In this document: piece by piece, positions 899 through 1,085 of the stretch
Layout: each line of letters begins with the position of its first letter
How positions within the stretch are numbered: the stretch's first letter is position 1
Origin: a virus
Taxonomy: Duplodnaviria > Heunggongvirae > Uroviricota > Caudoviricetes
Virus record (IMG/VR): IMGVR_UViG_2648501787_000010
DNA: 9,406 nucleotides
Reading direction: 5' to 3' (one strand)
The notes under the pieces: generated by a model
The model's database searches: none
What the model saw: only the letters and a program-made list of their open reading frames with translations
What the model was told of the DNA's origin: nothing
Translations under genes and position numbers: made by a program

Positions 899-925
899 CA
901 ATATCCCCACTTAGTTAAGGTTTCA

Positions 926-1000
926 GGTTGGTGTGTTGGTGTTATCTTTCCCTTTTTATTCATAGAGATAGAGCGAAAAACAAAACCACCACCACCAACC
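926..1000 (-). repeat. imperfect inverted repeat between cosN and the terS start; candidate cosB-like binding elements for the small terminase
   Basis: Plus strand 926-943 GGTTGGTGTGTTGGTGTT and 984-1000 AACCACCACCACCAACC (reverse complement GGTTGGTGGTGGTGGTT) are inverted copies separated by about 40 bp of AT-rich DNA. They occupy the position of lambda cosB (R sites) but do not resemble the lambda R-site sequence as I recall it. Confidence 0.45.
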
Positions 1001-1085
1001 CGAAAAGGCTCATAAATAGCGAAAATCCGCAAGGTCGCCGCCCCGTAGCCTGCCGGATCGCCGGAAAGGACCCGCCAGCCAGAAC
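1000..1085 (-). other. lambda-type cohesive end site (cosQ/cosN); predicted 12-nt cohesive end GGGCGGCGACCT at 1032-1043 on the minus strand
   Basis: Minus-strand sequence GGGTCCTTTCCGGCGATCCGGCAGGCTACG-GGGCGGCGACCT-TGCGGATTTTCGCTATTTATGAGCCTTTTCG matches the junction of the lambda right end (...GGGTCCTTTCCGGTGATCCGACAGGTTACG) and left end (GGGCGGCGACCTCGCGGGTTTTCGCTATTTATGAAAATTTTCCGG), recalled from memory, with only scattered substitutions. Orientation and distance to the Nu1-like gene match lambda. Confidence 0.85.

Follow-up and report, generated by a model that had tools for sequence, protein, structure and literature searches.

The window analysed here, a stretch of 9,406 nucleotides from the IMG/VR virus record IMGVR_UViG_2648501787_000010, is a phage-satellite island of E. 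coli, namely a phage-inducible chromosomal island (PICI) of the EcCICFT073 type with a length of about 9 kb. Our analysis indicates with fair confidence that positions 921-1005 of this window are the cosB of a cos-packaged PICI which encodes its own small terminase subunit (TerS) and would redirect the large subunit (TerL) of a helper phage. PICIs of Gram-negative bacteria disseminate virulence and anti-phage genes, and to our knowledge Rpp is the sole packaging mechanism that has been worked out for them, one which needs the helper's own TerS. The existence of TerS-encoding Gram-negative PICIs was noted in 2018 (PMC6092414), and a study of 2019 demonstrated that Rpp redirects packaging at a cosB specific to the island, with RppA directing it to the cosB of cos1 (PMC6739421); the islands discussed by Murialdo and Feiss in 2022 are of the Rpp type only, with a single R3-like element proposed. 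The searchable literature yielded no published description of the cosB, the mechanism or the helper of TerS-encoding Gram-negative PICIs; islands of the TerS type are known already, and their recognition site is apparently undescribed.

The cos region is numbered with bp 1 as the first base of the cohesive end, so that bp n is window position 1044-n, and its features are as follows.

1067-1073, minus strand: cosQ-like heptamer GGGTCCT, within a 33-bp stretch upstream of cosN that is near-identical to the lambda-type sequence
1043-1032, minus strand: cosN cohesive end GGGCGGCGACCT, identical to lambda bp 1-12 at 12 of 12 bases
1010-1021 (bp 23-34), minus strand: block CGCTATTTATGA, common to lambda, with 10 of 12 columns invariant among 14 islands
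981-993 (bp 51-63), minus strand: proximal R-like element GGTGGTGGTTTTG, 10 of 13 columns invariant, conservation 0.96
958-970 (bp 74-86), minus strand: central box TATCTCTATGAAT, 6 of 13 columns invariant, conservation 0.88
926-938 (bp 106-118), minus strand: distal R-like element CAACACACCAACC, 7 of 13 columns invariant, conservation 0.92
898-356, minus strand: terS, small terminase subunit of the Nu1 family (PF07471), 180 residues

Read on the minus strand, the region runs GGGTCCTTTCCGGCGATCCGGCAGGCTACG, GGGCGGCGACCT and TGCGGATTTTCGCTATTTATGAGCC in succession, which is the cosQ plus cosN sequence of lambda, and the cohesive end has the 12-nt length and the partial dyad symmetry of a lambda-type cos site. 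In such sites cosQ is an element about 30 bp upstream of cosN, and we take the heptamer at 1067-1073 to be cosQ. The sequence GGGTCCTT in the stretch upstream of cosN is invariant among 10 E. coli islands, and the same stretch occurs in a prophage with a TerS that shares about 99% identity with lambda Nu1. On the other side of the region, terS starts with the ATG at 898 (bp 146), a start also chosen by the Prokaryotic Genome Annotation Pipeline, and a ribosome-binding site GGGGA stands before it at 904-908. RefSeq also lists a hypothetical protein of 69 residues, WP_001299375.1, at 898-1107 on the minus strand, spanning cosQ, cosN and cosB; given the pattern of DNA conservation it is probably no real gene. 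An exact match to the consensus of integration host factor (IHF), WATCARNNNNTTR (AATCAACTTATTG), was seen at 1106-1118 on the plus strand, about 35 bp upstream of the cosQ-like element and just beyond the end of the AlpA-like gene.

The initial annotation had drawn two inverted repeats of 17-18 bp around an AT-rich spacer in this interval, in place of the R sites of lambda, and had taken the interval for the cosB equivalent. The repeats are indeed there, 926-943 reading GGTTGGTGTGTTGGTGTT and 984-1000 reading AACCACCACCACCAACC on the plus strand (reverse complement of the latter GGTTGGTGGTGGTGGTT); the spacer is A+T-rich, and none of the lambda R sequences (R1-R3) occurs in the interval. However, the arms as drawn have only 8 exact bases in common, GGTTGGTG; they overlap two conserved 13-mers, and it is their non-overlapping parts that are not conserved. 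The best inverted repeat is one of 13 nt, 921-933 against 993-1005, with 12 of 13 positions complementary, and a repeat this good arose in only 7 of 1000 dinucleotide-preserving shuffles of the interval from cosN to the ATG. The distal element, which lies 27 bp from the terS start codon, reads GGTTGGTGTGTTG in reverse complement and is thus an inverted imperfect copy of the proximal one, the common form of the two being GGTnGnnGTnTTG; on the proximal side the inverted repeat has a window-specific extension, which reaches 1005. A third R-like element was not found before terS. Folded as a single strand, the window sequence gives z = -5.4, with the proximal block paired to the distal one, and this pairing recurs in every island, in the prophage of the E. 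albertii type described below and in lambda, where R3 pairs with R2. A reading of the strong fold as RNA structure was set aside, since the lambda R3/R2 pair behaves likewise; the fold reflects the dyad symmetry of the DNA.

The interval from cosN to terS was aligned for 14 islands from five genera (Escherichia, Enterobacter, Citrobacter, Kosakonia and Superficieibacter) and from metagenomes. Up to bp 118 the alignment is free of indels in 12 of the 14, the exceptions being L013, which lacks 6 bp, and L009, which lacks 1 bp, both in or beside the GGT tract. The family consensus is GGTGGTGG(T/G)TTG at bp 51-63, TATCnnnATGAwT at bp 74-86 and CAAyACACC(A/C)AC(C/T) at bp 106-118, and to the mean column conservation of the three blocks as listed above correspond values of 0.67-0.82 in the intervening stretches. 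The proximal and distal elements match each other at 10 of 13 positions in L023 and at 11 of 13 in L021. Among relatives the proximal arm varies in the half nearer to cosN (GGTTGGTG, bp 44-51) and the distal arm in the third next to the spacer, therefore the long repeat of the window is partly lineage-specific. Covariation of arm with arm, or of arm with recognition helix, was also considered; the lineage differences (T/G at bp 60 and A/C at bp 115) fall at non-equivalent positions of the two copies, and therefore no compensatory pattern can be claimed.

The positions of the three blocks are those of a known system. In lambda, R3 lies at bp 50-65, the core of I1 at 74-86, R2 at 109-124 and R1 at 151-166 (as located here, in agreement with PMC9026076); the island elements fall within 1-3 bp of R3, I1 and R2, with the central box exactly at the I1 core, so that the identification of the interval as a cosB equivalent stands. 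The likeness to lambda extends to the cosQ and cosN sequences, to a TerS of the Nu1 family encoded directly downstream of cosB, and to the mutual inversion of the two outer elements. The R sequences, in contrast, are unrelated (island GGTGGTGGTTTTG, lambda AGGCGTTTCCGTTCTT), the recognition helix of TerS is distinct, the central box is a poorer IHF match and no terL follows terS. Nor is there an R1 in the island, because terS starts at bp 146 instead of bp 191 as in lambda, and the lambda R1 position falls inside island terS. At the I1 position the central box might serve as a bending site; a scan of the interval from cosN to terS for the IHF consensus gave no match at one mismatch or fewer.

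In sequence class the closest counterpart is that of phage N15, whose R3 has been mapped to bp 48-60 (PMC9026076). This GT-rich R3, GAGGTTGTTGTTT, overlaps and resembles the proximal element, and the TerS of N15 carries a nearly identical AFDKWGV recognition segment, which suggests that the island TerS may bind a GT-rich R3-like element as well. N15 differs in having R3 alone, with terS from bp 89, whereas the island has in addition a central box and a distal copy in inverse orientation; N15 has GAGGTTG where the island element has GGTGGTGG, and it is a complete phage with its own terL. Phages of Trabulsiella, Pluralibacter and Pseudomonas that share this recognition segment show GAGGTTGGTTGTTGTT at the place of R3. 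More similar in layout are the lambdoid prophages L024 (E. albertii NBRC 107761) and L025 (Escherichia sp. MOD1-EC7003), in which an N15-class terS is followed by terL. In their cosB, bp 48-61 read GGTGGTTGTTGTTT, bp 74-86 TATCTAATTGATA and bp 107-118 AATACAACAACC. The third of these clearly repeats the first in inverted orientation, and the prophages share with the island a three-part cosB at the same coordinates with an inverted repeat, here of GGTTGTTGT. Their central box fits the IHF consensus well, with 8 of the 9 specified positions matched by hand count. They differ from the island by the presence of terL, by a TerS only 49% identical and by the element core, GGTTGTTGT against GGTGGTGGT / GGTTGGTGT in the island. 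Judged by its sequence, the island cosB is a diverged member of an N15-class family of cosB sites built either with a single R or as R-box-R, and it was absent from all 50,697 phage records searched.

The protein encoded next to this site matches PF07471 over residues 37-152 (E = 9.3e-24, 84 bits against a cut-off of 30) and aligns with lambda Nu1 in BLASTP at 37% identity (E = 2e-35). Its divergence from Nu1 had been placed mostly in the N-terminal region, and the figures, 34% identity over residues 1-50 and 35% over residues 51-90 against 48% over residues 91-130, agree in direction, but the gradient is modest. The C-terminal end had likewise been called conserved; the motif quoted for it, LDENLPQILADY, does align with LDELIPGLLSEY of lambda, whereas within the island family the C-terminus is the most variable part, the mean pairwise identity of 13 island TerS proteins being 0.83 over residues 1-50 and 0.51 over residues 131-166. 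Residues 6-48 align to the DNA-binding domains of the lambda and N15 TerS proteins, and the AlphaFold model places helices at 8-14 and 19-24, strands at 31-33 and 36-39 and a helix at 41-56, from which the N-terminus is predicted to have the topology of a winged helix-turn-helix. The recognition segment VSATAFDKWGV is to be compared with ISVQAFDKWGV in N15 and ASIRTIQNWQE in lambda (recognition helix SATAFDKW, SVQAFDKW and SIRTIQNW, respectively), and the N15 TerS (gp1), 56% identical over residues 1-50 and 48% overall, is the closest among sequenced phage TerS proteins. By these comparisons the DNA-binding domain is assigned to the N15 class and is not unique to the island. Retained docking of the other end on a lambda-like TerL, as put forward in the initial annotation, is overstated; such docking would rest on the C-terminal identities given below. 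The Nu1-like protein was also considered as an Rpp, and this was rejected: BLASTP against RppA gave no alignment, the protein has the full length of 180 residues, while Rpp homologues have 139-154 residues and no TerL-binding tail, and a search of solved structures with the island TerS found neither the RppC nor the TerS(1-98) chain.

Conserved parts that would serve recognition and exchangeable parts that would face the helper may be told apart by comparing islands with one another and with the prophages that hold them. Islands sharing the same cosB carry different cosN variants, GGGCGGCGACCT, GGGCGTCAGGCG, AGGCGGCAGCGT and GGGCGTCAGCGT; cosN is the lambda/21/phi80 sequence in most islands, AGGCGGCAGCGT in the Citrobacter islands L018-L020 and another variant in L021. 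The TerS of a Superficieibacter sp. island (L023:2501-3004) is a chimera, which matches the TerS of Citrobacter islands at 82-84% identity over residues 1-90 and lambda Nu1 at 64-80% over residues 91-167. A strict pairing of cosN with the TerS C-terminus was looked for and rejected, since the VADNLPQILADY type is seen with two different cosN sequences. One island, L007, interrupts the capsid gene of a prophage that has lambda cosB and a TerS about 99% identical to lambda Nu1; the two share the same cosN, whereas their cosB differs and their TerS DNA-binding domains are only 34% identical. Such data fit a scheme in which a conserved recognition pair (DNA-binding domain and cosB) is joined to helper-matched parts (cosN and the TerL-docking end). 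They also bear on the packaging-specificity switch proposed in the initial annotation: the cosB and DNA-binding domain of L007 are distinct from those of the prophage that holds it, as a switch would have it, but the recognition is of the N15 class and so is not island-specific in kind. The stronger claim of an island-specific DNA recognition fails on the N15-class domain, on a proximal block that resembles N15 R3 and on the prophage of the E. albertii type with the same three-part cosB.

The proposed mechanism may be put as follows. After the island is induced and replicated, its TerS would bind through the N15-class winged helix-turn-helix domain to the two inverted 13-bp elements of the form GGTnGnnGTnTTG, at bp 51-63 and 106-118 from the cut site, and its C-terminal region would recruit TerL from a lambdoid helper phage. 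The helper TerL would then nick the adjoining lambda-type cosN and package island concatemers into helper capsids. The island would thereby be selected independently of the helper's own TerS, because helpers of the lambda, 21 and phi80 types differ in R sequences and in the recognition helix, and it would probably compete with the helper TerS. What the analysis establishes is the elements themselves, where they lie, how well they are conserved, that they are linked to terS and to which class the DNA-binding domain belongs; binding of TerS, bending at the central box, docking of TerL and interference with the helper are inferred. In geometry the site would resemble lambda cosB and in sequence class N15 R3, and the system may be considered akin to the TerS(S) of the pathogenicity islands found in Staphylococcus aureus (SaPIs).

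Several results weigh against this mechanism and the site assigned to it. In a study of 2018, resident prophages failed to mobilise the two TerS-encoding PICIs of E. coli that were put to the test (PMC6092414). In the window the two elements agree at only 9 of 13 positions, it is the non-conserved part of the proximal arm that lengthens the repeat, and compensatory change in both arms across lineages was not demonstrable. In L013 (about 2540-2560) two GGT units (6 bp) are gone just upstream of the proximal element, which brings cosB 6 bp nearer to cosN, and a change of spacing by about 6 bp is reported to be severely defective in lambda (PMC9026076). The central box fits the IHF consensus poorly, at about 6 of 9 specified positions by hand count. 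On the side of the protein, residues 131-166, the last stretch aligned with lambda, are only 44% identical to it, the C-terminal 66 residues reach at most about 55% identity to any phage TerS, and a C-terminal tail of 14 residues has no counterpart in lambda Nu1 or in phage TerS proteins. The AlphaFold model has a predicted local distance difference test score (pLDDT) of 74-86 over residues 1-40 and is poor for the remainder, and fold searches that used the entire low-confidence model missed Nu1 and were uninformative. Finally, the island L010 has cosN GGGCGTCAGGCG (L010:2567-2578) with an otherwise typical island cosB, and this cosN differs from that of the lambda-type prophage around it (compared at L067:12360-12620), which has lambda cosN, lambda Nu1 and a TerL identical to lambda gpA at 640 of 641 residues; the prophage that embeds L010 may therefore not be its helper.

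The rival explanation with the best case is that no switch of specificity exists at all. The cassette would have been acquired from a lambdoid phage whose TerS is of the N15 class, helpers of the same class would use the shared cosB, and the island terS would be a redundant or dosage copy. The L024 and L025 prophages, with the same three-part layout at the same positions, a distal element that differs from that of the E. coli island at one base in 13 and a DNA-binding domain 52% identical, are what such a history would leave behind. We consider it unlikely, since the island elements (GGTGGTGG.. / ..CACCAACC) are consistently unlike the phage ones (GGTTGTTG / CAACAACC) and the recognition helix differs from that of the phage at 2-3 positions, across five genera. 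Moreover, islands sit within prophages that bear the Nu1 and the cosB of lambda, most islands have a cosN of the lambda/21/phi80 type, and the island cosB is found in no record of the phage collection.

Two further explanations give the repeats no role in packaging. Inverted repeats are typical of operators, an AlpA-family gene (1100-1444) lies immediately upstream and the distal element is close to the terS start (27 bp), so that the repeats could be a transcriptional operator or regulatory site for terS, for instance one for the AlpA-like protein. Five islands (L008, L009, L011, L012 and L013), however, have an unrelated 137-residue gene in place of the AlpA-like gene and keep both elements, and on this ground the AlpA-like protein was rejected as their binder; the elements co-occur with terS irrespective of the upstream gene. 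In the islands the interval is always accompanied by a Nu1-family terS beside which no terL lies. Neither a promoter nor a terminator was found in 899-1031, where no sigma-70-like promoter was seen, and the positions of the blocks are fixed relative to cosN and coincide with R3, I1 and R2 of lambda; an operator is very improbable. That the repeat is a functionless by-product of a slippage-prone (GGT)n facing an AC-rich stretch, with packaging left to cosN and cosQ or to a second cos, is also very improbable. The copy number of GGT does vary, L013 being two units short, and equal repeat length was reached in 7 of the 1000 shuffles; relatives have a second cos with a phage-like cosB, and plasmids whose cos has no cognate cosB are transduced even so, though less frequently (PMC6092414). 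But both 13-mers are conserved over five genera while the intervening DNA has diverged, terS is intact and widespread (761 of 5,426 genomes, see below), and the second cos of the window is destroyed.

The state of this second cos can be read from its remnant, which is as follows.

318-354 (to 358 with the terS stop codon), plus strand: inverted cos2 remnant that keeps a cosQ-like GGGTCCT and bases 1-8 of the cohesive end

The remainder of cos2, including its cosB, is deleted up to the terS stop codon, and therefore cos1 is the only intact cos of the window. An intact cos2 stands at that position in L008, L011, L012 and EcCICFT073 (compared at L011/L012:3192-3420 and L002:3095-3330); both endpoints of the deletion have GCGAG, which suggests that cos2 was lost by a deletion at microhomology. 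In TerS-type islands with an intact cos2 (L008:3218-3420 and L011:3192-3400, reverse), the cosB of cos2 is like that of a helper phage, with repeated CATGTCG/CGACATG elements and a ATAACTnTTTGTTTTT box, and it resembles the cos of the CFT073 prophage beside icd (L002:39660-39935); these islands may hold one island-specific and one helper-type cos. The cos2 of EcCICFT073 itself has three ATGTCCGG/CCGGACAT repeats.

The comparison with EcCICFT073, the model Gram-negative PICI, places the cassette in its genomic setting. The gene order of the window is that of the right half of EcCICFT073, where the capsid gene c1499, the decoration gene c1500, a 137-residue gene, cos1, the 144-residue RppA, cos2 and the same 93-residue open reading frame (ORF) follow one another, and therefore the Nu1-family terS occupies the slot of rpp in the characterised relatives. 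Backbone, gene order and cassette slot are alike, with up to 94-96% identity outside the cassette, and so are the lambda-type cosQ and cosN and the pairing of a non-phage cosB with an island-encoded winged helix-turn-helix protein. RppA differs in its length, in lacking the TerL-binding C-terminal region and in forming a heterodimer with the helper TerS, and it has no detectable sequence similarity to the island TerS, a full-length Nu1 homologue; for the Rpp-type cosB a single element, ACCACCACC (bp 55-63), has been proposed, without a distal copy. At the R3 position the top strand has (GGT)3 in TerS-type islands (985-993 in the window, bp 51-59) and (ACC)3 in Rpp-type ones (L002:2584-2592 in EcCICFT073 cos1, bp 55-63), which is the same duplex in opposite orientation, for proteins without detectable similarity. 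Until about bp 35 of cos1, and once more after cos2 begins, the islands of O157 and Nissle share 94-96% identity with EcCICFT073, and in between cosB plus terS replaces cosB plus rppA. The two cassettes are exact alternatives between two inverted cos sites (L011 and L012 against L002:214-3821), some of the islands sit at the same chromosomal site beside phoQ, and recombination at cos may exchange them.

The SaPI TerS(S) is likewise a satellite TerS without TerL, which reads a satellite-specific site and borrows the helper TerL (PMC6739421). SaPIs differ by headful (pac) packaging, by an unrelated TerS family and by Ppi, which blocks the phage TerS, whereas island packaging is of the cos type and no Ppi-like function was identified in the island. 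Likewise, no terL was found in the island, the ORF after terS having 93 residues, and a terS without an adjoining or overlapping terL is the mark of a satellite TerS.

In respect of its distribution, the cos-terS segment is present in 761 of 5,426 complete E. coli genomes (at least 80% coverage, 83-100% identity), O157:H7 and Nissle 1917 among them, and the RppA cassette in 97 of the 5,426, which makes the terS cassette about eight times commoner. TerS homologues 54-57% identical occur in Enterobacter, Citrobacter, Kosakonia and Superficieibacter, where the order of capsid, decoration, AlpA-like gene, cos and terS is kept. A wider proposal, which we advance tentatively and at somewhat less than even chances, is that the terS-cosB cassette is a third strategy of packaging hijack by satellites and the commonest one in E. 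coli. With the helper TerL it would form a terminase that excludes the helper genome, terS and rpp cassettes would be interchangeable between the inverted cos sites, and the C-terminus and cosN would be re-matched to the available helper. If the cosB reading is true, a DNA site of about 85 bp and a protein of 180 residues should confer on lambda-type capsids a packaging specificity independent of the helper TerS; this would aid the prediction of phages that mobilise such islands and could be used in PICI- or cosmid-based delivery. It would also bear on the question of Murialdo and Feiss, how much of the geometry of R3-I1-R2 as against its sequence is needed for the assembly of terminase, for in the island cosB the geometry is retained and the sequence replaced. 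The idea follows naturally from what has been published, yet it concerns the commonest cassette.

The other genes of the window, identified from ORFs and Pfam matches, all lie, like terS, on the minus strand.

9406-8165, minus strand: tyrosine integrase (int), Pfam
7639-7433, minus strand: AlpA, Pfam
5859-4105, minus strand: D5-type primase, Pfam
3541-3119, minus strand: SSB, Pfam
2845-1805, minus strand: lambda gpE-like capsid protein, Pfam
1795-1454, minus strand: gpD-like decoration protein, Pfam
1444-1100, minus strand: second AlpA-like protein (AlpA family, helix-turn-helix), Pfam
282-1, minus strand: 93-residue ORF next after terS, from the ORF list

The window has the traits of a Gram-negative PICI, namely int, alpA and a primase/replication module in a tail- and lysis-free element of the 10-kb class, and a copy 97% identical to it, from E. 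coli strain MEW, adjoins tRNA-Pro and is flanked by yejM and yejO. Relatives carry variable cargo near the packaging module or int, at L010:3945-4706, L015:4559-5916 and L067:3631-4506, which comprises an abortive-infection family protein, an FRG-domain gene with a DUF3892 gene, and a TIR-domain protein, in line with the habit of PICIs to carry anti-phage genes.

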